Shown here: positions 1 through 15,955 of the stretch, piece by piece
Layout of the letters: each line of letters begins with the position of its first letter
Numbering within the stretch: position 1 is the first letter of the stretch
Virus record (IMG/VR): IMGVR_UViG_3300045988_023617
Direction: 5' to 3' (one strand)
DNA: 18,844 nt
From: a virus
Notes under the pieces: generated by a model
Seen by the model: only the letters and a program-made list of their open reading frames with translations
Database searches by the model: none
Told to the model about the DNA's origin: nothing
Program-made: the position numbers and the translations under genes

Positions 1-216
1 GGAGGGGAGGGGCCCCAGCCACTAGCCTTTTTCCACAACCGCTCTGTTATGTGTTTGTGTTTTCTTTTGCGTTGTGTGTTCTTGCTTGTATTGTTGGTGG
101 TTGTGGTTGTGGTGGGGTTTTTTTGTGTTGTTTTTTTGTGTGTTTTGGGTGTGTTGTTTTTGGTGTGTGGTATGATGTGAGTATCAACCGATAGGGAAAG
201 GAAAAAAATAAAATGA
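1..216. repeat. Left inverted terminal repeat (216 bp), perfect reverse complement of 18629..18844
   Basis: I compared the two ends base by base. They are identical from position 1 through 216 and diverge at 217 (a on the left, t in the right-end complement). The repeat reaches the very first and last base of the window, as expected for true ends of a protein-primed linear genome. Confidence 0.97.
168..176 (+). promoter_or_regulatory. Extended -10 promoter (TGGTATGAT) inside the left ITR, firing inward
   Basis: TGn + TATGAT at 168-176, directly after the G/T tract and about 37 nt upstream of the ATG at 213. It is the same motif class as the TGnTATAAT boxes at other gene junctions. No clear -35. 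Confidence 0.5.
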
Positions 217-377
217 ACACCGTTGTTTCGTTTGATTGGTGGAGCAAGTCCATTACAGTGGCATTCGTTGATTACAATACCGTGCACTATTTCGATGGGC
301 AACGCTATTACCGTCAAGGGCGCAAAGAGTCGTATGCGCCGCGAACTGTGCATGGCAACGGGCGTGGAATTGTCTAA
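213..377 (+). CDS. Left terminal early protein, 54 aa, unknown function; start codon lies inside the ITR
   Basis: Too short for the >=60-aa ORF track. ATG at 213-215 follows GGAAAGGA (196-203). Translation is MNTVVSFDWWSKSITVAFVDYNTVHYFDGQRYYRQGRKESYAPRTVHGNGRGIV, with TAA at 375-377. The mirror ATG at the right end opens a clear 85-aa ORF, which supports use of this initiation site. Confidence 0.5.
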   Translation: MNTVVSFDWWSKSITVAFVDYNTVHYFDGQRYYRQGRKESYAPRTVHGNGRGIV

Positions 378-437
378 TTTGAAGTATTGGCGGACGGACG
401 GTTCCGTTGATTACTATCGTGCGGATAGGGAGGGTGA

Positions 438-671
438 ATGATTGTGAGAGAGCATATGTATATCGTAGCTAGTTGGCCTTGTGTTGACTATGTCCAAGTG
501 GCAACTCCGACTCGTAATTACTATGTAGTCCATGCCGCAGACTCTTATGAGGCTTTGCGTAGGATTCTTCAGCTTGAGGGAGTTATACTTTACGCTCATG
601 TTAAGCGGCTCACGTCCTGCCGTAACGTTGGGGCCGGATATGTGGCTTATTATTATAGTGTGGTGTATTGA
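438..671 (+). CDS. Hypothetical early protein, 77 aa
   Basis: ORF-track entry. ATG is preceded by AGGGAGGG (427-434). No recognisable motif. Confidence 0.4.
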   Translation: MIVREHMYIVASWPCVDYVQVATPTRNYYVVHAADSYEALRRILQLEGVILYAHVKRLTSCRNVGAGYVAYYYSVVY

Positions 672-672
672 T

Positions 673-741
673 ATGTTTTCTTCGGTTCTTGTTATTTGCG
701 TATGCATCCTTGGTATTGTTGCCGTTTTTGGTATTATGTGA
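673..741 (+). CDS. Possible 22-aa hydrophobic micropeptide (MFSSVLVICVCILGIVAVFGIM)
   Basis: ATG at 673 lies 1 nt after the TGA of the preceding ORF. The whole product is about the length of one transmembrane helix. This is the in-frame tail of track ORF 532..741. No SD of its own, so translation would have to be coupled. Confidence 0.2.
   Translation: MFSSVLVICVCILGIVAVFGIM
729..737 (+). promoter_or_regulatory. Candidate extended -10 box (TGGTATTAT)
   Basis: TGn + TATTAT, 25 nt upstream of the ATG at 762 and just before its GGAAAGGA SD. Confidence 0.3.
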
Positions 742-761
742 TTGGAAAGGATAATTAAAAA

Positions 762-1007
762 ATGTCTTATGGTGACATTCGTGTCGGGAGGTTCAACAGC
801 TCTCATATGGGGGGTGACGTGCGTATCGAATACTGCACACACCAACATCTTTTTTATCTGACATATAACGTGGAGTTCCATACGCCAGTCGGCTTGACTG
901 AGGGCGTCGCGCGGTGCGGTTATGACCCTACGAAAGCCAATGAAATGCGTTCTATGGTGTTGGATGCTATGGATATTGCGGCCAAACCACTGGAGGATAG
1001 GGATTAG
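762..1007 (+). CDS. Hypothetical early protein, 81 aa
   Basis: ORF-track entry. SD-like GGAAAGGA (744-751) has the same sequence and similar spacing as the sites in the ITR and before the SSB gene. Confidence 0.5.
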   Translation: MSYGDIRVGRFNSSHMGGDVRIEYCTHQHLFYLTYNVEFHTPVGLTEGVARCGYDPTKANEMRSMVLDAMDIAAKPLEDRD

Positions 1008-1008
1008 C

Positions 1009-1212
1009 GTGTACTTTCGTGGTTGGATTCATTCATGGACGTGCGGCGATTGTCCCGACGCTGATACGTATTGGCGTTTGCGTGCGTTTTGGGCAGGTGC
1101 GAAGTGTAAGGGTGACTCTTTCACGCCGCCGAGACGGTGTCCGAGTACCGACTTGTGGTTTGATATGTGGTGGTATGGTGCAGAGTCCAGTAATGAGGAA
1201 TTGGAGCTTTAA
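1009..1212 (+). CDS. Possible Trp/Cys-rich small protein, 67 aa (GTG start)
   Basis: In-frame part of track ORF 922..1212. GTG at 1009 lies 2 nt after the TAG of the upstream gene, downstream of GGAGGA (992-997) and AGGGA (999-1003). Stop at 1210-1212 is 2 nt before the next ATG. The competing ORF 1019..1240 would overlap the next gene. Confidence 0.25.
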   Translation: MYFRGWIHSWTCGDCPDADTYWRLRAFWAGAKCKGDSFTPPRRCPSTDLWFDMWWYGAESSNEELEL

Positions 1213-1214
1213 TT

Positions 1215-1745
1215 ATGAAATTGAAGAATTTGAATTTTGATAAAAGCGAAAAACGTACGAATTGGTTTGATGACGGCGTGCTGGATGATGACCGTGTGCG
1301 CCGTGTCATTCGGGGGCGTCGCCGTAATCTGCACTTGCGTGAATACAATCGAGGTGAGGGTGATTGGGAAACATTATGCCGTAGTATAGCACTGCTCAAG
1401 AACTTTTATAAGCCTCAAGGGTCGCAAGTGGCGTTCGCCGACGGGGTGGAACATGCGGCAAACGTTTGCCTATCATTGTCCTCCCACACATCTTGCATCG
1501 GAGCGTTGGCGCGAACTCAGGATATCGAAATGCTGGGCGGCGTCATTTATGCCCCGGCTATGGTGGCGTGGTGCGCCGTCTGTCATGTCAAGGGCGCGTC
1601 ATGCTATGAAATGTGCAAAGTCTGGGATGGCAATGAATTTGCTCAGACTGTCGTTAAAATCGCGTGTCGTTGTTTTGACAATCTGACAGATGTGCGGTAT
1701 ACTGATGAAGACATTGCAAGAATGTCTCAACAGCAGCAACAATAA
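1215..1745 (+). CDS. Hypothetical early protein, 176 aa, Cys-rich with poly-Q C-terminus
   Basis: Longest ORF in the left arm. GGAG lies 8 nt upstream of the ATG. No motif I recognise. Confidence 0.6.
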   Translation: MKLKNLNFDKSEKRTNWFDDGVLDDDRVRRVIRGRRRNLHLREYNRGEGDWETLCRSIALLKNFYKPQGSQVAFADGVEHAANVCLSLSSHTSCIGALARTQDIEMLGGVIYAPAMVAWCAVCHVKGASCYEMCKVWDGNEFAQTVVKIACRCFDNLTDVRYTDEDIARMSQQQQQ

Positions 1746-1757
1746 AGATAAGGCGGT

Positions 1758-2078
1758 ATGATTATGGCATACATTAAGAGAGCCAAGCATTACAGTATTG
1801 TGCGCGGCATTACGCGCGGTGAAAACGGTGAACTCGTTGATGCCGAGGTGGTCGTGAATGGCGCGTGCCGTACTGCTGACATGGCTATGAAGAAAGCCCG
1901 CAAAATCAACAAGGACATGCTACCCATGTCCGCCGAGTATCATGCGCAGGCAACGCGCATGGATGAGGCGATTTATTGGGCTAATTGCGAATTTGGAGAT
2001 GATACCATTGTTGACTATCCGGGGCCGGTTAACGGCAACGTGGTTGAAGATGATATTATCACCGAGGAAAATAATTAA
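1758..2078 (+). CDS. Small protein with acidic C-terminal tail; candidate phi29 p6-like dsDNA-binding (origin-organising) protein
   Basis: 106 aa (104 if it starts at ATG 1764, which has better spacing to AGGCGG). It lies immediately upstream of the p5-like SSB, as gene 6 does in phi29. Size is similar to p6 (~104 aa). The tail VEDDIITEENN is acidic. There is a loose resemblance between G-x-x-T-x-x-x-A-x-K-K-A-R-K and the p6 stretch GNLTMEQAQWRMKRK. Confidence 0.35.
   Translation: MIMAYIKRAKHYSIVRGITRGENGELVDAEVVVNGACRTADMAMKKARKINKDMLPMSAEYHAQATRMDEAIYWANCEFGDDTIVDYPGPVNGNVVEDDIITEENN
2051..2059 (+). promoter_or_regulatory. Candidate extended -10 box (TGATATTAT) upstream of the SSB gene
   Basis: TGn + TATTAT, 47 nt upstream of ATG 2106, inside the 3' end of the preceding gene. 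Confidence 0.3.
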
Positions 2079-2105
2079 TAATCCCTATAAGGAAAGGCAA
2101 CACTA

Positions 2106-2543: not shown

Positions 2544-2571
2544 CGCGATTGTCCGCACCGTATGATATCAT

Positions 2572-2597
2572 GGCAACGTCCCTATAGGGATGTTGCC
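2572..2597 (+). promoter_or_regulatory. 26-bp near-perfect palindrome GGCAACGTCCCTA/TAGGGATGTTGCC
   Basis: The 13-nt arms are complementary except for one G-T position. It lies in the SSB-TP intergenic region, 6 nt downstream of a TATGAT hexamer (2561-2566). It could be an RNA hairpin or a dimeric protein-binding site. Confidence 0.45.
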
Positions 2598-2605
2598 GCC
2601 AGACT

Positions 2606-2647
2606 CACCCCCCGCCGTTTCCATCCTTGCGGCGAGGGGTGTTTCAT
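2606..2647 (+). terminator. GC-rich hairpin with short T run (possible attenuator or weak intrinsic terminator)
   Basis: CACCCCCCGCCG (2606-2617) pairs with CGGCGAGGGGTG (2630-2641) at 11 of 12 positions, with a 12-nt loop, followed by TTTCAT. It lies just upstream of the G-rich SD of the TP gene. Confidence 0.35.
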
Positions 2648-2664
2648 ACTCACAGGGGGGAACC

Positions 2665-3609
2665 GTGGCAAAACGCAAAAACCGCCGACGCGCTGACAAT
2701 CTGAAACGCAACGCCGCAATCAGGTCGGCACAGGTACGTCGGGAACGAGCAGTCAGAGATTACAGTACCGGACGTCTCCCCAAGCGAATCACCGAAACGT
2801 TCTTGGGGAATCTTAGTGCCCAACAGCTTGAGCAGGTCGCGCGACGCATTGGGCAGGAGTTCGGAGAACAACAGCAAGCCTTAAGGGCGCGGGATAATGA
2901 GACGTATCAGGTTGTTCCAGACGTTCGCGTCACGAAACTTGACCGTGAGATGGCCGCGCGTCCGCTGATTACCGATGCGGAAATCGCCGCCGCCCCGTCG
3001 AAACGTCGGAAAACATTGCGGCAGCAGCAGCGACGACGGGTCGAGGCACGGCAGAAAATCAAGCGTGCCCAACAATTCGAGGCGCTGGGCATGGCCCGCT
3101 ATACCGTGGGTGAAATGCGTGAGATGGAACGTGCGGGTGAATCTCCGTTTGATGTGCTGGGCACTCACACGGTTGGCGGTTCGGCACGTGACGAACTTAT
3201 GCGAAGCCGTGCGAATGTGTTCGGCTCAGAGCGTGGTATAAGTCATGCGCGTGTGATGATGCGAGAGGGAGACCGTAGGAAGCTTGAGCGAGAAGTGCTT
3301 GAATACGCCGGACTTGTAGGACGTGCGCCGTTGCGTGCGGGAACTAGGCGTATTCCTGAAAACGAAGGCGTTTCGGATTTTGATAAGGTCGCGCAACAGC
3401 TCGAAGCATTCGACTCTAGTGTCGCCCAAAGATTCGCTTCTTTGTCGAACCGACAAAAACGATGGCTGATAAACAACACGAATTTCAGCACCGTAGTACG
3501 CGAGGCAACGTGGTATAATGATAAGGCGCATAAATGGGAAACTAAATCGGACGCGGAGGATGTAGAGACACGACTTGATGAATGGATAACCAGCGCAGCA
3601 AGACACTAA
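2665..3609 (+). CDS. Putative terminal protein (replication primer)
   Basis: Track ORF 2590..3609, but its first 25 codons run through the two intergenic hairpins. GTG 2665 follows GGGGGGA (2655-2661) and gives 314 aa. The protein is highly basic at the N-terminus (KRKNRRRADNLKRN). It lies immediately upstream of the protein-primed polymerase, as in phi29-like phages. No direct sequence motif was recognised, so the call rests on position and composition. Confidence 0.55.
   Translation: MAKRKNRRRADNLKRNAAIRSAQVRRERAVRDYSTGRLPKRITETFLGNLSAQQLEQVARRIGQEFGEQQQALRARDNETYQVVPDVRVTKLDREMAARPLITDAEIAAAPSKRRKTLRQQQRRRVEARQKIKRAQQFEALGMARYTVGEMREMERAGESPFDVLGTHTVGGSARDELMRSRANVFGSERGISHARVMMREGDRRKLEREVLEYAGLVGRAPLRAGTRRIPENEGVSDFDKVAQQLEAFDSSVAQRFASLSNRQKRWLINNTNFSTVVREATWYNDKAHKWETKSDAEDVETRLDEWITSAARH
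3511..3519 (+). promoter_or_regulatory. Candidate extended -10 box (TGGTATAAT) inside the 3' end of the TP gene
   Basis: Perfect TGnTATAAT 106 nt upstream of the polymerase ATG. Being internal to a CDS, it is less certain than the boxes at gene junctions. Confidence 0.3.
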
Positions 3610-3624
3610 AAAAAGGATGGAATT

Positions 3625-5085
3625 ATGCGAGAGCGTCGAACGGCGGCAACAGACGGCGCAACATTATTGACGGATGACGGTATAACGCCATTGACGGCGA
3701 ACGCCGTCGTTCGCCTTACGATGCTTGACCATCATACGCGCGTATGGTGCGCACATGGATGGCAGGATATCAAGCTAATAGCGGCCGAGCTGTTGAGACG
3801 CCTCCCCCTGCAATCGAATCCGGCCAAGGATGGAGTTTATGGCACTTTTAATATTCGCGGCCACTTCTACAGTTTCCGCGTGCGCATGGGCGGTATCACC
3901 GTGGATTTTCTGGACGTGCGCAATGTCACACGCGACGACGGGCTGAATGTCTCACGTGAAACGTTTGGCGGTGCGGATGACTTGGAAACCACGTGGAACA
4001 TCGCGCAGGAATGCGACGCCCTGAGGCTCAAGGGCACGACCATAGCGTCTATGGCGATGGGCGATTATATCGGGGGAGATTACGCCGGATTCAAACAGCA
4101 CTTTCCGCCATTGGATAAAGCGGAATATCATCGGATGCGCCCCGCATACTATGGGGCGATAGTGTACAGCAGGCCGGGGGAATATCGGGATTGCAAGAGC
4201 TGGGACGTGAACAGCCTCTACCCGAGCGTCATGCGCGACTTTGCCATGCCCGTAGGCGCGCCGATATGGTATGAAGGAAAATATCATGATGATGCTGATT
4301 ATCCGCTGCATATCGATGTTATCTCGTTCGATGCTCGATTGAAGCCGGGGAAAACGGCTACGCTCACGAATATCCTACCCGTATGGGGGTACGAGGGCGA
4401 ACGTATGGACAGCACGTTAGGCGTCGTCACCATGCCAGTGGTCGACGTGGATTGGCAGACCTTGACGGAAAACTATGATGTCCATGCATGGGATTATATA
4501 GGCGGCTGGAAATTCCGTAAATCGCATGGACTCTATTACAACTACGTTGACAAATGGTTCCACGTGAAACAAACCGCAACCGGAGAGCGTCGGCAGATGG
4601 CGAAACTATTGCTTAATTCGTTGGTGGGGAAATTCGGAGCATCGCTTTATCGGCCTATGCTGCACCCGAAACCCTCTGGCGATGGCGGCGTGGATTTTAC
4701 CGTGGATAAACCCGAGTCAACCAACTCACTCGCATGGCTACCCACCGCCGCCTATGTCAACGCCTACGGGAGGCAAATACTGTCACGCGCGATGAATGCG
4801 AACGCCGACCGCGTGCTTTACGCCGATACGGACGGCATGATACTGGACGGACTGGATGCGCCCGCAGATATCGAAATGGACGATAAGAAACTGGGCGCGT
4901 GGAAAAACGACCACACCTATGAAAAACTCCGCATCCTCGGCAATCGCAAATACTGCGGCGCAGAGGAAGACGGCGGCACGGTGATGCGGTTGAGTGGCGT
5001 GCATCGAGCTGCCCCTATCCCCTACGACGACTTTTTGCCGAGGTCACGCCATGTCAACGATGACGGCTGTTTTTTTGTGCTATAA
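3625..5085 (+). CDS. Protein-primed family-B DNA polymerase (phi29 p2-like), compact 486 aa
   Basis: WDVNSLYPSVM (motif A, nt 4201-4233). MPVGAPIWYEGKYHDDADYPLHI matches phi29 LPYGEPIVFEGKYVWDEDYPLHI. AKLLLNSLVGKF (motif B, from about nt 4600). YADTDG (motif C, nt 4819-4836). KKLGAWKNDHTYEKLRILGNRKY (KxY). SD AAGGA lies upstream of the ATG. Confidence 0.95.
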   Translation: MRERRTAATDGATLLTDDGITPLTANAVVRLTMLDHHTRVWCAHGWQDIKLIAAELLRRLPLQSNPAKDGVYGTFNIRGHFYSFRVRMGGITVDFLDVRNVTRDDGLNVSRETFGGADDLETTWNIAQECDALRLKGTTIASMAMGDYIGGDYAGFKQHFPPLDKAEYHRMRPAYYGAIVYSRPGEYRDCKSWDVNSLYPSVMRDFAMPVGAPIWYEGKYHDDADYPLHIDVISFDARLKPGKTATLTNILPVWGYEGERMDSTLGVVTMPVVDVDWQTLTENYDVHAWDYIGGWKFRKSHGLYYNYVDKWFHVKQTATGERRQMAKLLLNSLVGKFGASLYRPMLHPKPSGDGGVDFTVDKPESTNSLAWLPTAAYVNAYGRQILSRAMNANADRVLYADTDGMILDGLDAPADIEMDDKKLGAWKNDHTYEKLRILGNRKYCGAEEDGGTVMRLSGVHRAAPIPYDDFLPRSRHVNDDGCFFVL

Positions 5086-5086
5086 T
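5078..5086 (+). promoter_or_regulatory. Extended -10 promoter (TGCTATAAT) overlapping the polymerase stop codon
   Basis: Perfect TGnTATAAT. The TAA stop (5083-5085) is part of the hexamer. It lies upstream of a 180-nt non-coding structured region and the scaffold and capsid genes. Confidence 0.5.
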
Positions 5087-5090
5087 AATC

Positions 5091-5251
5091 GGTAGCGGGG
5101 TGTGCGTCCCAAGCTGATTCAATGGCCCGACCGGTAGGCAATCGGTAAGGCGATTCGGTCGGATGTAGACGTGCGTAGCCAACGCCCATCGACGGCGAGG
5201 GAACCCGCACAGCCTAGCAATCCGGCACGGCAGCGTGATTGCCGCCGTGCC
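5091..5251 (+). ncRNA. Structured non-coding RNA candidate or long structured late-mRNA leader (possible packaging RNA)
   Basis: No credible ORF here. Hairpin CCGACC...GGTCGG (5127-5162) has inner stem AATCG/CGATT and loop GTAAGG. A long-range helix pairs TGTGCGTCCC (5101-5110) with GGGA..CGCACA (5199-5211). The terminal hairpin GGCACGGCAGC/GCCGCCGTGCC (5224-5251) has 10 of 11 bp and loop GTGATT. The implied RNA is about 160 nt if transcription starts just after the box at 5078-5086. Confidence 0.35.
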
Positions 5252-5271
5252 ATCTACCTTAAGAGGTGATT

Positions 5272-5639: not shown

Positions 5640-7370
5640 ATGGCAACTACGCCAGTGGTGACGCCGAAGCAGCAATTGCGCCCGCTCACCGAATTCAATA
5701 ACGCTCAGATTCTCAACATGATTCGTAACGAGGCTTCGCCGGAATACCAGCGGCGAATGCCCTCGGCCACTCAGATGAACATGGACCGCCAGATGGCTAC
5801 GCTTATGTCTTCCACCCAGCTGAAGAACGAGTTTTATTCGGCGCTGGTGAACCGTATCGGCGGCACCTACGTGAACACATGGCGTTGGAATAATCCTCTC
5901 AGCGTTTTCCAGCGGGCATCGCAGGCGTATGGCGACACGTGGCAGGAAATCGCCGTGGGAATGCCGCTCGCGCAGGTCTATGACCCTGATGCGGAATATC
6001 TCGGCGCGGATAACTTCCGCAAGTGGAAAATCGACGTGGATTCGCTCTATCATCGTCTGGACTTTGCTCACTGGTATCCTGCGACCACGGATGATAAGAC
6101 GCTTCAGCGTGCTTTCACTTCCGAAAACGGTCTGGCCTCGCTCACTTCTCAGATTCTCACATCCTGCTACAATGCGGCTGAGGTTGACTTGTTCGAGGCT
6201 CTGTGCCACCAATTCGTCGAATACGCGAAACTCGGCGGCTATTGGCGTGTCCACATGGACAATGACCTGAACAACATGGGTAGTTCGGAAACGGACGCTC
6301 GCGACATGCTACGCCAGATTCGCGCATGGGCGGACACGCTTAAATTCGTTTCCACCAAGTACAACGCCCGTCACATGCCGACCTTCGCCCGCCCGGACGA
6401 ACTCGTGCTGTTCTGTTCCCCGGAAGTCAAGTCGGCGCTTGACGTGCAGGGCCTCGCCACGGTATTCCAGCGTACCGACGCCGAGCCGACCATCGACCGG
6501 ATTATCGTTATCCCTCAGGACAGGTTCGGCATGGATGGCGTACAGGCCATCCTAACGACCGACAAGTTTCTGATTGACATTCCGGTCATTAACGAAATGA
6601 CTCAGCAGACTAATCCGGTCAACATCAATTCGGTGAACCATTATCTGCATGTCCAACACATCATCTCGGTGTCCGGCTTCGCTCCGGCTGTCATGTTCTG
6701 GACGGGTGCCGGTTCCACCGCGAACGTGGTGACCCCTACCGGCACGCAGGCCGAAGCGCCGAAGTTCCAGCTCAAGCTTGCCATGTATGGCGGCGGTTCG
6801 GAAACTCCGAGCGATGTGGCGCGTGGCGGCGCGGTGCAGGTTACTGCCGACACGACTATCGCTAATGACGGTACCGCCACGTTCCGCTCGGATGCGGTCG
6901 AGTATCGTATCGGTGACACCGCCAAGCCGAAGAGCGATTACACGTATGTCTCGCCTACTGGCGTGCTTGTGGTCGGACTTGACGAACCGAACACCACCAT
7001 CCCGATCACCGCAACCGCATTGTACACGAATCCGGCGACGCCGGAAGTGCCGGGAACCGTGTCCGCGGCTCTGGACGTGCCAGTGGTCGGTGACGGTGTT
7101 ATCGGATTCAATCCGTCCATCATCGCATCCATTGCCGTGACCGTCCCGAACATGATCGTAGGACATACGGCGCAGGCGACTGCCGTGGCGACCATGATTG
7201 ACGGACGCACCGCCGACGTGACCGCACAGGCCGCTTGGACGTCCGGCACTCCGGCGAACGCCACCGTGTCCGAGTCCGGCGTGGTGACTGGCGTCAAGGC
7301 GGGCAGCTCTGACATCGCCGCCACGCTGTTCGGCGTGTCCGGCAAGAAGAGTGTGACCGTGACCGCGTGA
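5640..7370 (+). CDS. Major capsid protein (phi29 gp8-like) with C-terminal Ig-like (Big_2-type) domain
   Basis: [20 protein letters not shown] resembles gp8 [32 protein letters not shown] resembles NDFITSLVDRIG. NNPLSVF resembles [20 protein letters not shown] resembles IYNSAEVDEYEYM. The C-terminus ([68 protein letters not shown]) is a typical Big_2 pattern, and a second beta-rich segment precedes it. Strong SD GGAAGGAAGGA. Confidence 0.92.
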   Translation: [576 protein letters not shown]

Positions 7371-7376
7371 TATAAT
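7368..7376 (+). promoter_or_regulatory. Extended -10 promoter (TGATATAAT) overlapping the capsid stop codon
   Basis: The TGA stop (7368-7370) supplies the TGn of a perfect TGnTATAAT. A 105-nt structured leader follows, up to the tail-knob ATG. Confidence 0.5.
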
Positions 7377-7422
7377 GGGAGGGTAGCCGGTTGGCTACTC
7401 TCTCTCACGGTGTGATGCAAGA

Positions 7423-7481: not shown

Positions 7482-9809
7482 ATGATTGACGACGCGAACC
7501 CTTACGTAGAATCTAATTTTTCTTGGGCGGAATGGACACCGAACACGACACTGAAACTCTGCCGAGTGCCGTGGGATGCTTCATACCGTGATATCGTGCG
7601 GTTTGTTTCACGTGAAACGCAGCGAGAATGGTTCGACAAACTGGACGGCGTGGAATGCCGTCCGGCCACTATGCATATTTTCAACGCGCCCGCCCGCGTC
7701 GAACTGCCGTTTAACGAAGCATCGAACTGGAATTATCTTGTAGCCTATAACGACTACCCCGAATTGGAGGGGCCTCGCGCGTGGTATTACTTCATTCAGC
7801 GCGTCGAATACGTCAACGCCCATTGCACGCAATTGGTCTTGATGCTGGACGTGTGGCAGAGTTTCCAGCACGACGTCACATTCGGTAGCTGCTATGTGAC
7901 GCGCGGTCATATCGGCGTCGCCAACGAACGCCAGTGGAATGACTATGGGCGCACATATCTGGCGCTCCCGGAGGGCTTGGATACCGGAAGTGAAATGGTC
8001 ACAACGTCACAGGAATATCAGAGCATTATCGAAGGACGGCATTATGACATAGATGGCGGTGCCGTCGATTGGGTCGATTACGGTTTGATTGTGGTCAGCA
8101 CCACTAATCTCACCGACGACCCCGGCAGCACGTCCGAACCAAAGCTTACCACCGCAACCGGGGCCATCTTCGAGCAGGAGACGGACGGCTGTTCTGTCTA
8201 CTATTGTGAAAACCGAATGGCGTATGTCGCCAACATCATGGCCCTTGGCACGCTGTTCCCGTGGATAACGCAAGGTATTTGCGCCGTCTACATGGTGCCG
8301 AAAATTCCACAGGATTACGTGAGCCGATATGGGCATAGGGTTACGGAGATTTACGGGCAGCCAGTGTCAGAGGAATACGGCAACATTTATTCTTTTAATT
8401 CCTCTCTCGATTCGGACTTACGCTACGAGGATGTTATGTCCGTTGCGAACTTTCGCAATAAATTCAACATCCCCGCCCGATACCGGAATCTGCGCAAGCT
8501 CTATTGTTATCCGTTCTGCGTTATAGAATGCAGCTGTCTGAACGGCACGGTCATTACTTATCGACCTGAAGATATTCAATCCGATACGCTCACTGTCCGT
8601 GAAACCTACACTTACGCGCCGTCCGGTGCAAGAATCAATTTCTACATTCCCGGCTACAATGAGGCTGGAGCGACTACTACGGTCCCGCTGCGTATCGACG
8701 GCAAAGACATGGGGCTACCGATAGACGGCGGCGAAATGCTCAACGCAAGTTTCGGTATCACCAATTTGCCTCACTTTTCAGTGGTCAACAATGGTGGCGC
8801 GCTGGCTATGGCGAACAGCGCGTACACCCGCGCCTACGCGCAGGAGTCAGCCCAATGGACCAGGCAAAAGGCTTTAACTTCGGCTAACGTGGTCAACTCC
8901 AATGCCGCATTACAGCGCGAATACGCCACACGGCAAACCAATTGGGCAAACGAGAATCGGACGGCAACCAACGCCATCACTGCAAACTCGCTAAACCAGT
9001 CCCTTGCCATCGGACAGAATCAGACCAGCCAGATGGCTAATCTCCAAGTGGAGCAAAATATCAAGAGCAACAATCTCAACGGTATGGCCGGTATCATCGG
9101 GGGGGGACTGAACGCCGTCGCATCCCGCAGTCCATTGGGTGCGGTGAACGCGGTTGGCGGCGCGTTCCTCGGCTCCGCACATACGGACATCGCCAATTAC
9201 GGCATCAATTCGTCTGCCGCTGTCTCCAATTCCACGGCGGCGGCGAATACGGCGAATCAGATTGCCACCAATGCGGCGGCCACGTCGCAGGCCAACGCCT
9301 ACGCAAGCGGAGCGACCGCACTGGGCAACCAGCTGAACGCCGTCGTGTCGCAGGCGAATTACGGACTGGCCTCATATGCGGCTCAAGGTGATTACCAAAA
9401 CGCCATCGCCGGAATTAACGCTCAGGTGCAGCAGATGCAACTGACTCCGCCAACCACTTCGGGAGCGCTCGGCGGTGACATGTTCAACTTAAGCAACGGA
9501 ATTATGGGCGTGTTGGTGCGGTTCAAAACGTGTGCGCCGAGCGCGTTGAGGGCGGCAGGTGAATACATGCTACGCTATGGGTATTTTGTCCAGCGATTCG
9601 TCACCCCTCCCGCCTCACTGGAATGCATGGAGAAATTCACGTTCTGGCAGATGCAGGAGGCGTATGTGCGGGGCACGCTGCCTGAAGAATACCGACTGAC
9701 AATCAAAGGTATGTTTGAACGTGGTGTGACGGTTTGGGACAAGCCCGAGTATATCGGCGTGACTGACTGGGCTGACAATGAGCCACTTCCGGGCATTGGT
9801 TACGAGTGA
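7482..9809 (+). CDS. Tail knob / distal tube protein (phi29 gp9-like)
   Basis: The track ORF begins at TTG 7449, inside the hairpin. ATG 7482 has GGAGGA 5 nt upstream and gives 775 aa. [28 protein letters not shown] resembles gp9 [41 protein letters not shown] resembles [25 protein letters not shown] resembles [23 protein letters not shown]...GVTVWD resembles KYGYKINR...GITLWH. Confidence 0.88.
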   Translation: [775 protein letters not shown]

Positions 9810-9815
9810 TATAAT
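9807..9815 (+). promoter_or_regulatory. Extended -10 promoter (TGATATAAT) overlapping the tail-knob stop; 6 nt upstream of the portal ATG
   Basis: The TGA stop (9807-9809) is the TGn of a perfect TGnTATAAT. The hexamer ends at 9815 and the portal ATG starts at 9822. No SD lies between them. Confidence 0.55.
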
Positions 9816-9821
9816 GGCAGT

Positions 9822-10772
9822 ATGAGTAGGTCTAAAAAGAATCGAGTTGGCGGCGCGTTGCACCCACGTGGCAATTACGCGAAAACACGCGCCGTCACGC
9901 TTGATGACATGTATCTTCATTTGCTGATGGAACTCGCACTGAACCGTTTCAGCTGGCGCGGATTACCGCCCACTGTAGACGAACGTTGGCTGGAAATATG
10001 TCTGTGCGAATACGGATGCGCGTTGTTTTTCGAGGATAAGCGTATCGGCAGGTTCCTTGTGACTCAGGCAGGTTATCAAGGCAGATTGAACGTGTATAAT
10101 AATCCGACATGTTTCGAGCCGGTAGGCGTCAACTACCACTACAAGCAGCTCAAGGCCGGTTCGGAATGCATCCCTATCTGGGATAATCGAATGCGCGTCG
10201 GATTCAAGCCGACGTTATGGCAGTACGCGCGGCGCCTCGCCGACATTGACAAGGCGTATGACGTGAATCTGGAGAGTCTGAAGCTGCCGACCATCATCAC
10301 TGCCGACCCTCGCACCAAGCTCACCGTGCAGAACATGCTTCAACAACGGCAGGACGGTCAGGATTATATTATCGGATACGATTCGCTTGACCCCGGCAGC
10401 TCGTTCCAGCCGTGGCCGAACACAACGCCTTATCTGTTGGACAAGTTCGTCCAGCAAAAAGCGCAAGTGACTAATGAGGTGTTGGGATATCTCGGCATTC
10501 AATCGTCCGGCACGGAGAAAAAGGAACGGCTTATTTCCGATGAGGTGGCGCAAGCCAATGAGAAAGTAGACGTGTTCCGCTTGAGTTTCCTCAAGGCGCG
10601 GCAGACTGCGGCGACTGAGATTAACCGATTGTGGCCGCAACTGAACGTGTGGGTGGAGTATGCGGACGCGCAAAGCTCCGGCGTGCCCAACGCGCTTGAT
10701 TCAAGCGCAGGCGGCACTACGGACATCGATATGCCCGCATCGTACGACGCGGGTATCGGAGGGGTATTATGA
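9822..10772 (+). CDS. Portal / upper collar connector protein (phi29 gp10-like)
   Basis: 316 aa. LALNRFSWRGLPPTV resembles gp10 LAYQLFEWENLPPTI. GTEKKERLISDEV resembles NLEKKERMVTDEV. Basic N-terminus, as in gp10. No SD is present, so this is a candidate leaderless gene. Confidence 0.9.
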   Translation: MSRSKKNRVGGALHPRGNYAKTRAVTLDDMYLHLLMELALNRFSWRGLPPTVDERWLEICLCEYGCALFFEDKRIGRFLVTQAGYQGRLNVYNNPTCFEPVGVNYHYKQLKAGSECIPIWDNRMRVGFKPTLWQYARRLADIDKAYDVNLESLKLPTIITADPRTKLTVQNMLQQRQDGQDYIIGYDSLDPGSSFQPWPNTTPYLLDKFVQQKAQVTNEVLGYLGIQSSGTEKKERLISDEVAQANEKVDVFRLSFLKARQTAATEINRLWPQLNVWVEYADAQSSGVPNALDSSAGGTTDIDMPASYDAGIGGVL

Positions 10773-11566
10773 TGACGCAGGATTTTACCGCCTATGCTAT
10801 GGAGACTCCCGGCGAGTACACTGAAACTCTCGGCAATCTCATTGCATTCGGATACGACACGGCTGACAAGCTGCATCTGTCCGCCGACTACTATCCGATT
10901 TACCGAGAAGAACATCGTGCGGAATTGAACGAGAAAATCGTTCGCCATTACGCATTAAGGGAAATTGGGCAGGAAACCGCGCAGCAATTCGTTTTCTACT
11001 TGGGAACGACGATGGCGGAAATCATGCCCTATTTCAACGAGCGTTACCGGACGCTGGACATGCAATACAATCCGTTGGACTCTATGGATATGACGACGGA
11101 CAGCGAGAGCGGCAGCGAATCCCAGTCGTCCGGCAAAGCGTCCAGTACGCAGGACTCGACCAGCTCTAGCACATCCAAGTCAGACAATTCCAGCACTACC
11201 ACGTCAAAGAGTTTTGATAGCGACGTGCCGCAAACCGGTGTTGTAGGCGACTTCGCCCGCTACGCCTCCCATGCGAACGAATCGCAGGCGGACAGTTCCG
11301 GTACCGCGTCCAGTTCGCAGGATTCGACCAGTCACACCACGGCGCAAAGCGCAACCGACTACCAACACGATTCGAGCAACGCAAAGGGCAAGAGTCATGT
11401 GACCGGGCGCAGTCAGAGCGCCATGAGTCTGATTCAGGAATACCGGAACGCCATCATCAACGTGGATATGGAAATCGTACGCAGCCTCGAACCGTGTTTC
11501 ATGCAGATATGGGGTTCGTATGATACAATATTCGGCAACTGCCATAACTATGGAGAATGGGAGTAA
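10769..11566 (+). CDS. Lower collar protein (phi29 gp11-like) with long Ser/Thr-rich central segment
   Basis: 265 aa. ATGATG overlaps the portal stop (ATGA coupling), and GGAGGGG lies upstream. It sits directly after the portal. An N-terminal helical region (REIGQETAQQFVFYLGTTMAEIMPYFNERY) is followed by an S/T/D/Q-rich stretch and a conserved-looking C-terminus (LIQEYRNAIINVDMEI). Confidence 0.7.
   Translation: MMTQDFTAYAMETPGEYTETLGNLIAFGYDTADKLHLSADYYPIYREEHRAELNEKIVRHYALREIGQETAQQFVFYLGTTMAEIMPYFNERYRTLDMQYNPLDSMDMTTDSESGSESQSSGKASSTQDSTSSSTSKSDNSSTTTSKSFDSDVPQTGVVGDFARYASHANESQADSSGTASSSQDSTSHTTAQSATDYQHDSSNAKGKSHVTGRSQSAMSLIQEYRNAIINVDMEIVRSLEPCFMQIWGSYDTIFGNCHNYGEWE
11521..11529 (+). 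promoter_or_regulatory. Candidate extended -10 box (TGATACAAT) upstream of the appendage genes
   Basis: TGn + TACAAT, 40 nt upstream of ATG 11569, inside the 3' end of the lower-collar gene. Confidence 0.3.
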
Positions 11567-11568
11567 TC

Positions 11569-12159: not shown

Positions 12160-12177
12160 TAGGAAGGATTACGGCAA

Positions 12178-12531
12178 ATGACCAGCAAAACCTCAAATTA
12201 TAATCTTGAGAAATATGACGCGACGGACGCGCCTAACCTTGAAGGCTCGTACAACCGTTCGATGGACATTCTCGATACGACGTTAAAGACGCAGTCGGAT
12301 AGGATTGACGCCATTCCGACACCGGAGTCACTACCGGAAGGTTTGAGTGCATTCACTGCCGCCCTTGGACTGAGCGCCGCTAACGCCAATGCGCTCGGTA
12401 CCGCGCTTAATCACTTCCTCAACCGTGTTCCCGCAACCAGTGGCGGCCAGTACACCGTCAAGAACCTCAACGACACCAAGGTCACCGCGGAGGGTCTGCC
12501 GTTCGTTTCCACCACTGCTTCGGGAGATTGA
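12178..12531 (+). CDS. Appendage protein 1 (117 aa) carrying the shared N-terminal fiber-anchor module
   Basis: SD AGGAAGGA. N-terminus KTSNYNLEKYDATDAPNLEGSYNRSMDILDTTLKTQSDRI aligns without gaps to the N-termini of the next two gene products. Confidence 0.65.
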   Translation: MTSKTSNYNLEKYDATDAPNLEGSYNRSMDILDTTLKTQSDRIDAIPTPESLPEGLSAFTAALGLSAANANALGTALNHFLNRVPATSGGQYTVKNLNDTKVTAEGLPFVSTTASGD

Positions 12532-12722
12532 TGGACATGGCAGACGGACAGCAGGCCACGCCGGTGGACTCCGCCGCGTACGGTATGACGGGACATTTTG
12601 GACTGCCGCTTTACAATGACGCGACACCGATGGACATGCGCGACGGGTTCAACAGAGCCATGCGCATGATAGACCAGATTCTAAATCAGCTCAATACTCA
12701 AATTCGAGAAAAAAAGGACTAA
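12531..12722 (+). CDS. Appendage protein 2 (63 aa), essentially the shared anchor module alone
   Basis: ATG 12531 overlaps the upstream TGA (TGATG), and GGGAG lies 4 nt upstream. The track lists a TTG start at 12528. Contains MTGHFGLPLYNDATPMDMRDGFNRAMRMIDQILNQLNTQI. Confidence 0.55.
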   Translation: MDMADGQQATPVDSAAYGMTGHFGLPLYNDATPMDMRDGFNRAMRMIDQILNQLNTQIREKKD

Positions 12723-12725
12723 ACA

Positions 12726-14660
12726 ATGGCTACCGTATACAGTAAAACCGATAATTACGGGCTTAATTTGTATGGCGACAATGACCCAGCCGATTTAAGG
12801 GACGGCTACAATGGCTCCATGCACACCATTGACGATACGCTCGGAAAGCACCTTAACCGAATCGAAGGTGTCGAGTCGCGTGAAACGCATGATGAGGAAG
12901 TGGTCAAAGCGCTGATTGGTGATAACACGGTTGACAGCGCCACCGCATCGAAAGCCAAATGGGATAAATCGATTACAGACGCCGCCGCCGCAACCGCCGC
13001 CGCCGCAGCCGCAGCAGGTAAGGCGGACGACAATACCGCGATTCTCTCCGCGTTGGGAGCCGACACCACGGCAAACGCCACCGCCAATAAAACCAAATGG
13101 GATAAAGCGGGAGCGGACGCAGCGACAGCCATAGGCAAGGCTGACAACAATAAAACAATTCTTACCGCACTTGGGGCAGGCTCAACCGTTGACGCCACGA
13201 CGCAAAAAACCAAACTGGACAACACCGCCACCAAGGTGGACGAGCTTGCGAACGCGCGCGTGGACAGCAAGCTTGACTCGCACTTCATCATCCATGCGCA
13301 CCGTGGTTCCTACCGTTTTCCCGAAAACACAATGGAAGGGATTATGTGGGCGGTACGTCACGGATATATACCTGAAATCGACGTGCAACTCACGTCGGAC
13401 GGCGTGCCCGTAATCCTACACGACACCTCCACCGCCCGCACGATGACGGGGACGGCAGCTAACGTTTCATCCATCACTTACGCCGATTTTATGTCACGTG
13501 AAGTCAAAGCCAAGGTTCACGGCGGCAACACCGGCAAGCCAGTGAGTATGGAACAGGTGCTACAGGCTGTGGGGGATAGTCCCGTCGATTTTGAAATCAA
13601 GTCATTGACCAACGAAACTACGGACGCAATGCTGGAACTACTGCGAAAGTATAGCGCCACCGCAATCCACGAAGTGACTTCGTTCAGCTGGGAACAGTGC
13701 GTCCGCGCCGTGCAAGGGGGCATAAAATACGTTTCGTGGACGTGGGACGCTAACGCCATGCCACATTCTTGGGCTGACATGAAGAATGCCGGTATTTTCT
13801 GCGGAAACCCGCGTGAAGACAAACTCACTTCGGCAATGGTCAGCGCCGCACACTCGGCTGGCGTCAAGATTAATCCGTGGCTTATTAATGATCCCGTGGC
13901 ATATGAGCGAGTCACCGCGCTTGGAGTTGATGGCATTACCTCCAATTGGCCGGATTACGCCAGTGGACAGTTGGAGCGCAACTTCACGCCATTCAGCACG
14001 GGACAGAACGTTTTCATGCGTCCGAACTATGCCCCACAAGGCGGCACGGTATCACAGGAAATATCGGAAGCGGTTAGGGCGAAAAGCTCGTATCTCGCAC
14101 CGGACGGACTTTTCCAACTCGGAGACGCGGACTCTCAGATGCTAGTGGAATTGGTTGAGTGCGGCACGGTGACGCTGCCGGTCAGTATCGACCTTGAAGG
14201 GTTTGAGTCTCGCGTTCAGATTGGCGAGAATGGCGAGACGAAGAACATTGCAGTAATCGCAGTGAAGGAGTCAACCCCTATCGGCCAATTCAACGACGTG
14301 GCAACGGCTGGACAGGTCGGTATCATTGCGGGCGTTCGACGTAACGGTGCTACATTCGGCGGTTTTTATCAAGACAATGTGACGACGGTTGCCTTCGATA
14401 ATACCCCCGCAGTGTCTCCATCTGTGCCAAACGACAAAGCCGTAGGTGTGCATGCGTCCTTCGTTCTCGACCGTGACCACGCTCGAATCATTTGGGCGTA
14501 TTCCAATGGACAATCAGGTGATGTGACCACAGGAGATAATAAGGGCGTCACGTTGCCGGATACCGATAAATACCGTCTGTTTATCCGCCTTGCTCGCAAT
14601 TTTAAGAGCGCATGGAAAATTAGGGTACGCCCCTCTGATGGTTATCTCTACGAGAACTGA
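12726..14660 (+). CDS. Tail appendage / receptor-binding protein with glycerophosphodiester phosphodiesterase (GDPD) domain
   Basis: 644 aa. It carries the shared N-terminal module (KTDNYGLNLYGDNDPADLRDGYNGSMHTIDDTLGKHLNRI) and ~40-aa repeats with an Ala run. The GDPD signature is HAHRGSYRFPENTMEG...EIDVQLTSDGVPVILHD...INPWLINDP...GVDGITSNWPD (approx nt 13281-13955). A ~230-aa C-terminal domain of unknown fold follows. Confidence 0.85.
   Translation: MATVYSKTDNYGLNLYGDNDPADLRDGYNGSMHTIDDTLGKHLNRIEGVESRETHDEEVVKALIGDNTVDSATASKAKWDKSITDAAAATAAAAAAAGKADDNTAILSALGADTTANATANKTKWDKAGADAATAIGKADNNKTILTALGAGSTVDATTQKTKLDNTATKVDELANARVDSKLDSHFIIHAHRGSYRFPENTMEGIMWAVRHGYIPEIDVQLTSDGVPVILHDTSTARTMTGTAANVSSITYADFMSREVKAKVHGGNTGKPVSMEQVLQAVGDSPVDFEIKSLTNETTDAMLELLRKYSATAIHEVTSFSWEQCVRAVQGGIKYVSWTWDANAMPHSWADMKNAGIFCGNPREDKLTSAMVSAAHSAGVKINPWLINDPVAYERVTALGVDGITSNWPDYASGQLERNFTPFSTGQNVFMRPNYAPQGGTVSQEISEAVRAKSSYLAPDGLFQLGDADSQMLVELVECGTVTLPVSIDLEGFESRVQIGENGETKNIAVIAVKESTPIGQFNDVATAGQVGIIAGVRRNGATFGGFYQDNVTTVAFDNTPAVSPSVPNDKAVGVHASFVLDRDHARIIWAYSNGQSGDVTTGDNKGVTLPDTDKYRLFIRLARNFKSAWKIRVRPSDGYLYEN
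12927..13250 (+). repeat. In-frame ~40-aa tandem repeats (about 2.5 copies) in the fiber shaft
   Basis: The units are SATASKAKWDKSITDAAAATAAAAAAAGKADDNTAILSALGA, TANATANKTKWDKAGADAATAIGKADNNKTILTALGA, and the partial VDATTQKTKLDNTATKVDEL. Confidence 0.75.
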
Positions 14661-14676
14661 TGGACTATTTTAAGCG

Positions 14677-14709
14677 ATAGCCATGCTGCTATAATAGCAG
14701 CATGGCTAT
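14677..14709 (+). promoter_or_regulatory. Perfect 33-nt palindrome containing an extended -10 box (TGCTATAAT, 14687-14695) and the ATG of the tail-lysin gene
   Basis: ATAGCCATGCTGCTAT-A-ATAGCAGCATGGCTAT has 16-nt arms with no mismatch. TATAAT (14690-14695) straddles the centre. ATG 14702 is in the 3' arm, exactly 6 nt after the hexamer. TACTTTTG follows the palindrome. Confidence 0.6.
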
Positions 14710-15940
14710 TACTTTTGATGATTGGGTTAAGCAGACACAAGACCGATATTGGGATATGGATGGCGCATACGGTGCGCAGTGCTGGGACCTATGGGCCAAG
14801 TATAGTATGGACATGTATGGTCTGAGCGTTCAAGACTGCATCACCCCCACCGGCTATGCCGAGGGATGCTATACGAGGTTCCCCTACACCGCCGCACTCG
14901 GCAACGTGTATGAGAAAATGGACTCCAATTATACGCCAGTTAAGGGTGACGTGGTTTTTTGGACATTCGGCGGTCAAATCTACACTGGCTCCCATGTCGC
15001 AATCGTATGGGGTGGCGTCACTGGCGATAATATCGATGTTCTAACACAAAATCCCACTCCGGCAGTTCATCAAACCTTGCCACTCTTGCGCGGTTCGCAG
15101 CTGCTCGGCTACCTGCATCCCAAGAACTTGCAGCCGGGCGGCACGACGCCGGATAATCCGAACGGCGGCAATCCCACGGGTGGGGATAATCAAGGTTCGG
15201 GCGTGTCTGGCGGTTCGTCCGCATGGATACAGCAACAGGGCGATAATTTGATATACCATTACGGCTCGCGTAGTGGCGGCATGTCGGCGTTGTTCGTCAA
15301 GACTACCGCGCAGAATTGGATATATCGCGGCGCGTCCGGCACGGGTGCGCCGGATGGAGACGGCGGGCAATCGTCGCCCAGTGTAGGCGACGGCGAGTCA
15401 AGTTATGCGCTTTATGTGGTGGGCACGGTTGAATCATCATTGCGATGGGATGCGGTAGAGCCTAATCGCCAAGGCATCGGCATTGCGCAATGGAGTTTCG
15501 GCCGCCGCCTGCAAGTACTGAACGCGATGAAGACGGTTGACGCTGATGGATACCGGACGTTCGCCGCCGCCGCGCCGGACATTGTCGCGCTTATGGACTC
15601 GGGCGGCACGTTTGACAGGGCAATGACCGGTAGTGAGGTTGCTGCGTTCCAGACGTGGGCACGTCGTCCTCAGTCTCATGCGGGTCAACGCGCTCAGTTC
15701 GCTACGGATTACGAGGGCTATCCGCAAAAATACGACGACGCGAAGATGCAAATACTGTGGACTTGCGCATATCATCAATCTCCCGCAGGTGCGTTGAACG
15801 TGCCGACCGCGACCACGCTTGCGGGGTTGCGTGACAACATTCTAGCCACATCCCCGTTCGGACCATATGGCACGCGATATCAGGCCGCCTATAGCTTGCT
15901 GAACGTCTGGGATGGGAAGAGTGCGCCGCCAAACTTTTAA
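14702..15940 (+). CDS. Tail-associated peptidoglycan hydrolase: N-terminal CHAP endopeptidase/amidase + C-terminal phi29 gp13-type lysozyme-like domain
   Basis: 412 aa. CHAP signature: DMDGAYGAQCWDL (Cys27), GSHVAIVWGG (His98), VLTQNP (Asn117). A Gly/Asn/Pro linker covers aa ~145-175. C-terminal VVGTVESSLRWDAVEPNRQGIGIAQWS resembles gp13 GNMQSESTINPGLW...GFGLVQWT, with a putative catalytic Glu in GTVES. It occupies the phi29 gene 13 position, after the appendage gene. Confidence 0.8.
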   Translation: MAITFDDWVKQTQDRYWDMDGAYGAQCWDLWAKYSMDMYGLSVQDCITPTGYAEGCYTRFPYTAALGNVYEKMDSNYTPVKGDVVFWTFGGQIYTGSHVAIVWGGVTGDNIDVLTQNPTPAVHQTLPLLRGSQLLGYLHPKNLQPGGTTPDNPNGGNPTGGDNQGSGVSGGSSAWIQQQGDNLIYHYGSRSGGMSALFVKTTAQNWIYRGASGTGAPDGDGGQSSPSVGDGESSYALYVVGTVESSLRWDAVEPNRQGIGIAQWSFGRRLQVLNAMKTVDADGYRTFAAAAPDIVALMDSGGTFDRAMTGSEVAAFQTWARRPQSHAGQRAQFATDYEGYPQKYDDAKMQILWTCAYHQSPAGALNVPTATTLAGLRDNILATSPFGPYGTRYQAAYSLLNVWDGKSAPPNF

Positions 15941-15946
15941 CAAGTG

Positions 15947-15955
15947 TGCTATACT
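15947..15955 (+). promoter_or_regulatory. Extended -10 promoter (TGCTATACT), 6 nt upstream of the ATPase ATG
   Basis: TGn + TATACT ends at 15955 and the ATG is at 15962. There is no SD before either ATG 15962 or the track's GTG 15944. Confidence 0.5.

Follow-up and report, generated by a model that had tools for sequence, protein, structure and literature searches.

The DNA considered here is the whole 18,844-bp stretch of IMG/VR record IMGVR_UViG_3300045988_023617 (the window, to which all coordinates refer), from an uncultivated virus. It carries a series of short boxes that we read, with a probability of about 0.8, as some twelve extended -10 promoters of the host sigma-A type, lacking a -35 element, three of which would give leaderless mRNAs. 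The element can be written R-TG-n-TA-nnn-T, usually followed by G, and would be recognized by host RNA polymerase carrying its primary sigma factor, sigma-A. Eleven copies read rightward (168, 729, 2051, 2563, 3511, 5078, 7368, 9807, 11521, 14687 and 15947) and one, in an inverted terminal repeat (ITR), reads leftward. Because the genome is tightly packed, boxes would be built into the ends of upstream genes, with the TGA or TAA of the box serving as the stop codon. The result would be nested co-directional transcripts, boosting each downstream block in turn. For the genes of the connector, the CHAP hydrolase and the packaging ATPase, the A of the ATG would fall at the predicted +1, and box 5078 would start a structured RNA of about 160 nt, probably continuing into the scaffold and capsid genes.

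The window has 52.8% G+C and is bounded by perfect 216-bp ITRs (1-216 and 18629-18844). Its long open reading frames (ORFs), all on the plus strand, code for a type-B protein-primed DNA polymerase, a phi29-type major capsid protein, a gp9-like tail knob, a gp10-type connector, a lower collar, a tail fibre with a GDPD domain, a CHAP hydrolase and a gp16-type packaging ATPase; a phi29-type single-stranded DNA-binding protein (SSB), a holin and an amidase endolysin are also encoded. This content, together with the ITRs, makes the window a complete or nearly complete phi29-like podovirus genome. A single gene lies on the minus strand (18632..18375, 85 aa) and every other gene reads rightward. Megablast against 50,697 phage records found no match at the DNA level, and relatives were recovered by protein search only: IMG/VR holds at least 80 of them, at 78-90% nucleotide identity. 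Homology makes Bifidobacterium almost certainly the host. The closest isolates by capsid protein are Bifidobacterium phages (BadAztec, 42% identity; BD811P/BP1, 36%), the CHAP hydrolase and its counterpart in Bifidobacterium phage BP1 share 55% identity over the full length, and a scan of a genome collection found the amidase at 50% identity in two Bifidobacterium moukalabense loci; the same kind of scan with the CHAP hydrolase as query returned no match. BP1 is cultured on B. pseudocatenulatum U19, and BD811P1-3 on B. dentium DA811. The capsid protein is also recorded in metagenome assembly GCA_900527495.1. An amidase of 48% identity lies on CAVAWX010000045.1, a 14.9-kb contig of a metagenome-assembled genome binned as Acidaminococcaceae, in an unrelated phylum; the contig is more probably of phage origin and mis-binned than a signal of the host.

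The strict form TGNTA[TC]AAT occurs seven times on the plus strand (3511, 5078, 6165, 7368, 9807, 11521 and 14687) and never on the minus strand. In 2000 dinucleotide-preserving shuffles it averaged 0.53 copies per strand (standard deviation 0.74) and not one shuffle reached seven; TGNTATAAT, present five times, was expected 0.23 times in the same shuffles. Close variants stand at 168 (TGGTATGAT, mirrored at 18669-18677), 729, 2051 and 15947. An earlier note on this DNA had listed all these boxes, each at the place where we find it, with a chance expectation of 0.6 per strand that proves sound; a composition-matched shuffle count on both strands, which it lacked, upholds both enrichment and strand bias. 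Its view that most copies lie at gene boundaries is partly right, in that four of the seven strict matches do so, two fall in the last 100 nt of a gene and one is internal. As it had stated, stop codons are part of three boxes, 5078 (TAA 5083-5085), 7368 (TGA 7368-7370) and 9807 (TGA 9807-9809), where they end the polymerase, capsid and tail-knob genes, respectively. It was also correct that no box has a convincing -35: the best match to TTGACA at 16-19 nt spacing averages 2.4 of 6, against a genome-wide null of 2.66 (P=0.87), and the sole box with a partial -35 (4/6) is 729, with TTGGTA at 16 nt. A TG one base upstream of the hexamer is present in all 11 candidate boxes of the window. G follows the hexamer directly in 7 of 10 boxes, which we take to match the Corynebacterium glutamicum consensus. 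Across the 80 relatives, the strict motif is found 384 times on the coding strand versus 46 on the other, the latter being about the chance level. The three isolated Bifidobacterium phages behave alike (coding/other strand: BadAztec1, 4/1; BD811P2, 4/0; BP1, 6/0), with boxes at equivalent places. Arthrobacter phage Mendel (60% GC) displays no box enrichment, so that not all actinobacterial phi29-like phages have the pattern.

Conservation singles out the same bases. With seven boxes pooled, a departure from the window is seen in 0.5% of 2369 comparisons for the five defining bases (T, G, T, A, T), against 13.3% for the four N positions and 20.2% for the flanks; the TG is preserved in more than 99% of comparisons. 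In these alignments the profile is that of the known tolerance of extended -10 elements. The form TGNTANNNT is preserved in 97-100% of genomes at 168, 3511, 5078, 7368, 9807 and 11521, with room for turnover at the free positions: at the connector site (9807), relatives carry TGATATAAT, TGATATGAT, TGATACAAT or TGCTATACT. In a sub-clade where the upstream stop has shifted to TAG, the TG of the box is still kept, and what is conserved is therefore not the stop codon. Boxes lying within genes were judged by their synonymous sites, the reference being 273 positions of two-fold T/C wobble where the window has T; of these, only 4.8% are invariant. At 11521, both two-fold wobble T's (the T of TG and T-12) are invariant, and a four-fold wobble at an N position is freely A, T, C or G. 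At 2051, two key-position T's differ in 3-4% of relatives and the N-position wobble in 60%. Judged in this way, synonymous constraint at 11521 and 2051 bears on exactly the key positions, and it is absent at 6165. The latter (TGCTACAAT, 6165..6173) falls in the middle of the capsid gene and was discarded as a promoter: it is a run of Cys-Tyr-Asn codons, the motif is kept in only 53/80 relatives, the final T is lost in 27/80 through AAT/AAC wobble, and variation has a period of three.

Taken from left to right, the series begins in the left ITR with TGGTATGAT (168..176), followed by a Shine-Dalgarno (SD) sequence and the ATG at 213 of early gene 1; here TGNTANNNT is kept in 16/16 aligned relatives, in four sequence versions. 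Since the repeat holds box, SD and ATG together, its right-end copy (18669..18677, minus strand) faces inward and serves the single leftward gene, 18632..18375, with the same SD and ATG. At either end of the genome the first gene reads inward, and these two genes have only the start codon in common. The BD811P2 genome end has the same ITR box with GTAGTTATCAAC downstream, and the stretch that follows the box is similar across distant phages (GTGAGTATCAAC in the window, GTAGTTATCAAC in BD811P2, GTAGTTATCAGC in BP1). The next box, TGGTATTAT (729..737), lies 25 nt upstream of the ATG at 762, which has an SD; in the four alignable relatives the site reads TGGTATAAT or TGGCATAAT. Nearby, TGATATGTT at 669-677 shares bases with the TGA that ends the second early gene, a stop-in-box layout like that of 7368 and 9807; it is conserved in the six relatives that align, its hexamer is weak, and box 729 is nearer the next gene. 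Within the 3' end of an early gene, 47 nt upstream of the SSB gene, TGATATTAT (2051..2059) is a probable promoter, its motif being kept in 65/73 relatives. The site at 2000 (TGATACCAT) was tried as a promoter and set aside; both strands are equally conserved there, and its conservation is attributed to coding. Upstream of the gene for a 339-aa terminal-protein-like product lies an intergenic box that the earlier note did not list, TGATATCAT (2563..2571): 67/74 relatives match TGNTANNNT there, with TGATANNNT in at least five versions, and the BP1 equivalent is TGCTATAAT. The terminal-protein-like gene ends with TGGTATAAT (3511..3519), 106 nt upstream of the polymerase ATG. It is kept in 74/76 relatives, as is its -7 T, synonymous constraint is modest, and 74/77 relatives have a box 102-106 nt upstream of the polymerase gene.

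The polymerase stop is held in TGCTATAAT (5078..5086), with a T7 tract just upstream; this box is found in 78/78 relatives and also in BD811P2, BP1 and BadAztec1. Directly before it, in the end of the polymerase gene, a weak hairpin (5049-5077; GCC..GUCA ACGA UGAC GGC) with U7 could act as an attenuator or terminator, or as a promoter-helping T-tract. The capsid stop is the TGA of TGATATAAT (7368..7376), the predicted promoter of the tail-knob gene, present in 75/77 relatives and kept where the stop sits upstream (..TAG TGATATAAT). The same TGATATAAT recurs at the tail-knob stop, its TGA being that stop, where box, 6-nt spacer and connector ATG (9822) span 9807..9824 and the gene has no SD; the box is there in 77/77 relatives, in five versions, one of which is TGCTATACT following a TAG stop. 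Within the lower-collar gene, at its 3' end, TGATACAAT (11521..11529; 75/75 relatives) precedes the tail-fibre block, which is headed by a 200-aa protein (probable ATG 11575, with SD). A further TGCTATAAT (14687..14695) sits at the apex of a palindrome (14677..14709) upstream of the CHAP hydrolase ATG at 14702, and the last box, TGCTATACT, again with a 6-nt spacer, runs into the ATG at 15962 of the packaging ATPase gene (15947..15964), which has no SD. The units preceded by a box are the SSB gene, the terminal-protein-like gene, the polymerase gene, the RNA with scaffold and capsid, the tail knob, the connector, the tail-fibre block, the hydrolase, and the ATPase with the lysis genes. Distances are about 46 nt for SSB, 102-106 for the polymerase, about 72 for the tail knob, 6 for the connector, 45 for the 200-aa protein and 6-7 for the ATPase. 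No box precedes the scaffold, capsid, lower-collar, fibre and holin genes.

A second regularity concerns the distance from box to gene. Measured from the last T of the box to the ATG of an ORF of 80 aa or more, the spacer has sharp peaks in 81 genomes, with 88 cases at 6 nt and 48 at 7 nt. If the hexamer occupies -12 to -7, a spacer of 6 nt sets the A of the ATG at +1. The connector ATG follows after exactly 6 nt in 78 genomes, the window included, with five versions of the box. For the ATPase, TGNTANNNT lies 6-7 nt before the start codon in 52/64 relatives, in at least nine versions, and the CHAP hydrolase has the same layout of box, 6 nt and ATG in the window and a few relatives. SD energies for connector, hydrolase and ATPase are -3.1, +1.3 and -3.0 kcal/mol, when genes with a clear ribosome-binding site reach about -6 to -11. 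Since spacing is kept while the box sequence changes, the mRNAs of these three genes are likely leaderless; such mRNAs would account for the missing ribosome-binding sites of these genes.

The earlier note proposed that the genome is read from many -35-independent host-sigma promoters, one per functional module, with no phage-encoded switch such as p4 of phi29. The promoters find comparative support and 'one per module' is roughly right; the data agree with this core idea, and the absence of an early/late switch is not established. That there is no p4-like gene holds at the level of sequence and synteny only. Sequence searches of Pfam, PHROG and PDB (the last for four ORFs) revealed no p4 homologue or recognizable DNA-binding domain in the early ORFs searched, and the phi29 gene 4 slot, between the SSB and terminal-protein genes, contains no ORF in the window. 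Nor does the window have a divergent pair of early and late promoters, because all genes but one are co-directional. To be sure, many promoters and a switch are not mutually exclusive, since phi29 itself uses about ten promoters (PMC11476376). Distinctly less probable than autonomous promoters is a reading in which the boxes are promoters of host type and a phage DNA-binding protein, or the order of DNA entry, sets an early/late programme; the note's conclusion that there is no switch would then be wrong. Six small early ORFs have no recognizable function. The boxes at the left end all depart from the consensus at hexamer position 4 (TATGAT, TATTAT, TATCAT), while those of the structural genes are near-consensus, and promoters lie in both ITRs, as with the right-end C2 promoter of phi29 (PMC11476376). 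A target may exist as well: the perfect 14-bp palindrome GTTTCACGTGAAAC has four matches with at most one mismatch, when 0.07 are expected. It is exact at 7605-7618, has one mismatch at 3949-3962 and at 4557-4570 and two at 17656-17669, and it occupies fixed sites in 69/80 relatives, the same three places being used in 30-52 relatives. Within the polymerase gene it occurs in two different reading frames, and in some relatives it adjoins the hydrolase promoter or lies within the post-capsid hairpin. This looks like a protein-binding site, perhaps the operator of a regulator. Against a role at the promoters, GTTTCACGTGAAAC is not adjacent to any box in the window and is absent from BadAztec1, BD811P2 and BP1, which adds to the lack of a p4 homologue, of a recognizable DNA-binding domain and of an ORF in the gene 4 slot.

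Several boxes are associated with RNA hairpins. Directly 3' of box 2563, a hairpin at 2572..2597 has the ATG at 2590 in its 3' arm and the predicted transcription start in its 5' arm; it folds with -20.6 kcal/mol in full versus -6.0 from the predicted start, and relatives display a compensatory change from C-G to U-A. Directly 3' of box 7368, a 12-bp hairpin (7377..7404) with a predicted start near 7383 in its 5' arm has covarying versions in relatives (GGGAGTGTGGC/GCCACACTCTC and GGGGAGTGTTTCAC/GTGAAACACTCCCC), and goes from -25.5 to -10.3 kcal/mol. The third is the perfect 16+1+16 palindrome at 14677..14709, where the box runs from the end of the 5' arm across the centre base into the 3' arm, the ATG at 14702 lies in the 3' arm and U4 follows: -30.1 kcal/mol in read-through RNA, 0.0 from the predicted start. 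At all three sites the predicted start falls inside the hairpin. In most relatives, the hydrolase gene has a covarying GC-rich hairpin whose 3' arm has the TAT of TATACT as its last bases, with the ATG coming 6 nt after the hexamer. A U-tract after a GC-rich hairpin is seen at 14677-14709 (U4) and at 18337..18358, a bidirectional terminator-like hairpin (-21.6 kcal/mol, T-tracts on both strands) where the rightward genes meet the single leftward one; the hairpins 2572-2597, 5224-5251 and 7377-7404 have none. Similar arrangements exist in Actinomyces phage Av-1, with a box in a hairpin loop (12410-12440) and a box with a hairpin after the capsid gene (7016-7055), the latter also found in BadAztec1. 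These hairpins may terminate, stabilise or sequester. One might conjecture, with more reserve than for the promoters themselves, that boxes and hairpins form a punctuation of terminators with a promoter inside, and that box 5078 drives an analogue of packaging RNA in Bifidobacterium phages. The -10 would lie in the loop, or just upstream, of a hairpin that ends or stabilises the previous transcript, the next transcript beginning within the hairpin. Read-through RNA would fold the full hairpin (-20 to -30 kcal/mol) and bury the next start codon; RNA initiated at the box, deprived of the 5' arm, would escape the hairpin and be translated in leaderless or near-leaderless form. The consequence would be that each block is expressed from its own promoter only.

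Box 5078 is the predicted promoter of a structured RNA and, probably, of the scaffold and capsid genes as well. About 175 non-coding bases separate the polymerase stop from the scaffold gene; at 86-98% identity, they are better conserved than the genome as a whole. A conserved non-coding RNA (5095..5251, plus strand) is predicted there, with a domain I (5095-5218) in which a long helix pairing the 5' and 3' ends closes a multi-branch core, and a 3' hairpin (5224-5251) with five covarying pairs; 99.2% of pair cells are paired in the consensus fold. The closing helix starts 9 nt after the hexamer of box 5078. At the same site, BD811P2 (about 4732-4900), BP1 (13019-13200, reverse) and BadAztec1 (12689-12850, reverse) have the polymerase-stop box, a closing helix 6-9 nt further on and an RNA of about 155-170 nt, so that in four divergent lineages in all the helix begins 6-9 nt after a -10 hexamer. 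Between BD811P2 and BP1, 6 of 43 pairs are compensatory and none is broken. In these two phages a U-tract follows the final hairpin, and then a second TGATATAAT box before the scaffold gene. The family of the window has neither U-tract nor second box at this site, a complementary pattern that fits both elements being functional; in the window, scaffold and capsid would therefore be read through from box 5078.

This RNA is a candidate packaging RNA (pRNA), by analogy with phi29; its binding to the prohead is hypothetical. Like the phi29 pRNA (RF00044), it is about 160 nt long and has its own promoter and a domain of about 125 nt closed by a 5'/3' helix round a multi-branch core (here a predicted consensus), with a bulge-containing hairpin, a second hairpin, a short linker and a 3' hairpin, reminiscent of domains I and II. 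The predicted structure is of the pRNA type in having a domain of about 120 nt, a 5'/3' helix, a three-way junction and a 3' hairpin. A GGC in the bulge and a GCC in the loop are invariant in 78/79 genomes and could pair between molecules; three relatives have GGCAAA with UUUGCC, and there is no real covariation. By contrast with phi29, the RNA matches pRNA neither in sequence nor by covariance model, and it lies between the polymerase and scaffold genes instead of at the genome end. Rfam gave no match to RF00044 or any other family at E <=1 for this RNA; the one weak match, to IBV D-RNA (E=0.15), is merely the 14677-14709 palindrome. With a covariance model built on the RNA, the 3' hairpin alone was recovered at the syntenic site in BadAztec1 and BP1 and domain I was missed; the homology of domain I across lineages therefore depends on position and topology only. 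According to a 2024 review, pRNA is known in Bacillus phages only (PMC11476376).

Several observations weigh against the promoters and against leaderless expression. All start sites are predictions from sequence. Trp-Tyr-Asn codons account for most of box 3511, and boxes 729 and 14687 can be aligned in 4-6 relatives only. Promoters of highly expressed genes in B. breve do have a -35 (PMC5746004), and -35-less promoters may therefore need the TG or a factor. Before the hydrolase gene most relatives have TATACT without TG (GGGTATACT), the leaderless layout is not kept in BD811P2 or BP1, and the gaps between upstream stop and ATG are short, 12-41 nt, which makes re-initiation from read-through mRNA possible for the three genes. 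It is conceivable, if rather unlikely, that connector, hydrolase and ATPase are not leaderless, being translated from read-through mRNA by termination-reinitiation or coupling, with the boxes adding transcripts or being incidental. The gaps of 12, 41 and 21 nt would suit this, as would the co-directional genes with few strong terminators and, in BD811P2 and BP1, an ATPase box about 110 nt upstream. Such an explanation has difficulty with the 6-7 nt spacing, kept at the connector and at the ATPase despite turnover of the box, and with the hydrolase ATG, which in read-through RNA would be sequestered by the -30 kcal/mol hairpin; leaderless mRNAs are, besides, common in Bifidobacterium (PMC4782308). 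Much less plausible is conservation for a reason other than transcription, as stop-codon context or as the site of a replication or packaging protein. Three boxes do contain stop codons, and TGATATAAT tends to end ORFs because it has stops in two of its three frames. Yet TG and hexamer stay where the stop moved upstream to TAG, the in-gene boxes 11521 and 2051 are constrained at synonymous sites, the tolerated variation follows the sigma-70-family extended -10 consensus position by position, and box polarity follows gene direction down to the single leftward gene. Chance or base composition, which may be credited with the coding coincidence at 6165, one strict match of seven, can be discarded in view of a count that none of 2000 shuffles reaches and of strand-specific enrichment in 80 relatives and three isolated Bifidobacterium phages.

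Leaderless mRNAs and -35-less TANNNT promoters are hallmarks of Actinobacteria. In Mycobacterium tuberculosis, promoters have TANNNT without a -35, TGNTANNNT forms the strongest class, and leaderless genes make up 26% of those with a primary start site (PMC3898074). The corresponding figure in B. pseudolongum is 15% of start sites (PMC4782308), while in B. breve positions 1, 2 and 6 of the -10 weigh most (PMC5746004). The boxes resemble such sigma-A promoters in being dominated by the -10, without -35 and with the TG extension of the strongest class, and the predicted leaderless mRNAs resemble theirs in starting 6-7 nt after the hexamer, with ATG or GTG at +1 and no SD. The difference is that the TG extension, found in 7% of cases in M. 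tuberculosis (PMC3898074), is present here in all functional candidates, next to a near-consensus TATAAT, and that the elements are phage-borne and packed into stops and hairpins, with starts that are predicted only. Phi29 itself (promoters A1, A2a-c, A3, B1, B2, C1, C2; p4) is likewise a small protein-primed podovirus read by host RNA polymerase from about ten promoters (PMC11476376), with an inward promoter at the right end, a promoter for its packaging RNA and a late promoter, A3, that lacks a -35. However, it has divergent early and late operons under a p4/p6 switch, whereas the window is co-directional but for one gene, spreads its promoters between the structural genes and has no detectable p4 homologue. 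The window has its gene order in common with Av-1 (NC_009643), BadAztec1, BD811P2 and BP1. The Av-1 record annotates -10-only signals, including the 9-nt TGGTATAAT (12419-12427) in a hairpin loop; its TGCTACAAT with a hairpin after the capsid gene has no annotation. The ITR box, the polymerase-stop box and the RNA gap all recur in BadAztec1, BD811P2 and BP1. These phages differ from the window in a capsid protein only 36-42% identical, and the leaderless spacing at connector and ATPase is specific to the family of the window.

A search of one literature library found no paper that analyses promoters of Bifidobacterium phi29-like phages. Extended -10, -35-less actinobacterial promoters and leaderless mRNAs are well established, and what is new, and well supported, is their occurrence in an uncultivated phage family. 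Less ordinary, and put forward as hypotheses, are structural genes with conserved leaderless starts, the nesting of promoters in hairpins and the pRNA-like RNA. The outcome is a predicted promoter map for uncultivated, abundant, human-associated Bifidobacterium phages, of which public metagenomes hold more than 80 near-complete genomes and which have three cultured relatives, and an example of a very small genome in which stop codons, promoters and hairpins overlap. Cassettes of short, strong, -35-independent promoters and leaderless starts could become building blocks in Bifidobacterium genetics. Of the by-products, the RNA after box 5078 is the most valuable: if a true packaging RNA, it would extend pRNA beyond Bacillus phages (PMC11476376). 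The map also corrects gene starts, as the program-made ORF starts at 15944, 11557 and 7449 are probably wrong: the ATPase most likely begins at ATG 15962, not at GTG 15944, and the 200-aa protein at ATG 11575 (SD GGGAG), not at 11557, while the tail knob starts at 7482 in a public gene call versus TTG 7449 in the program-made ORF list.

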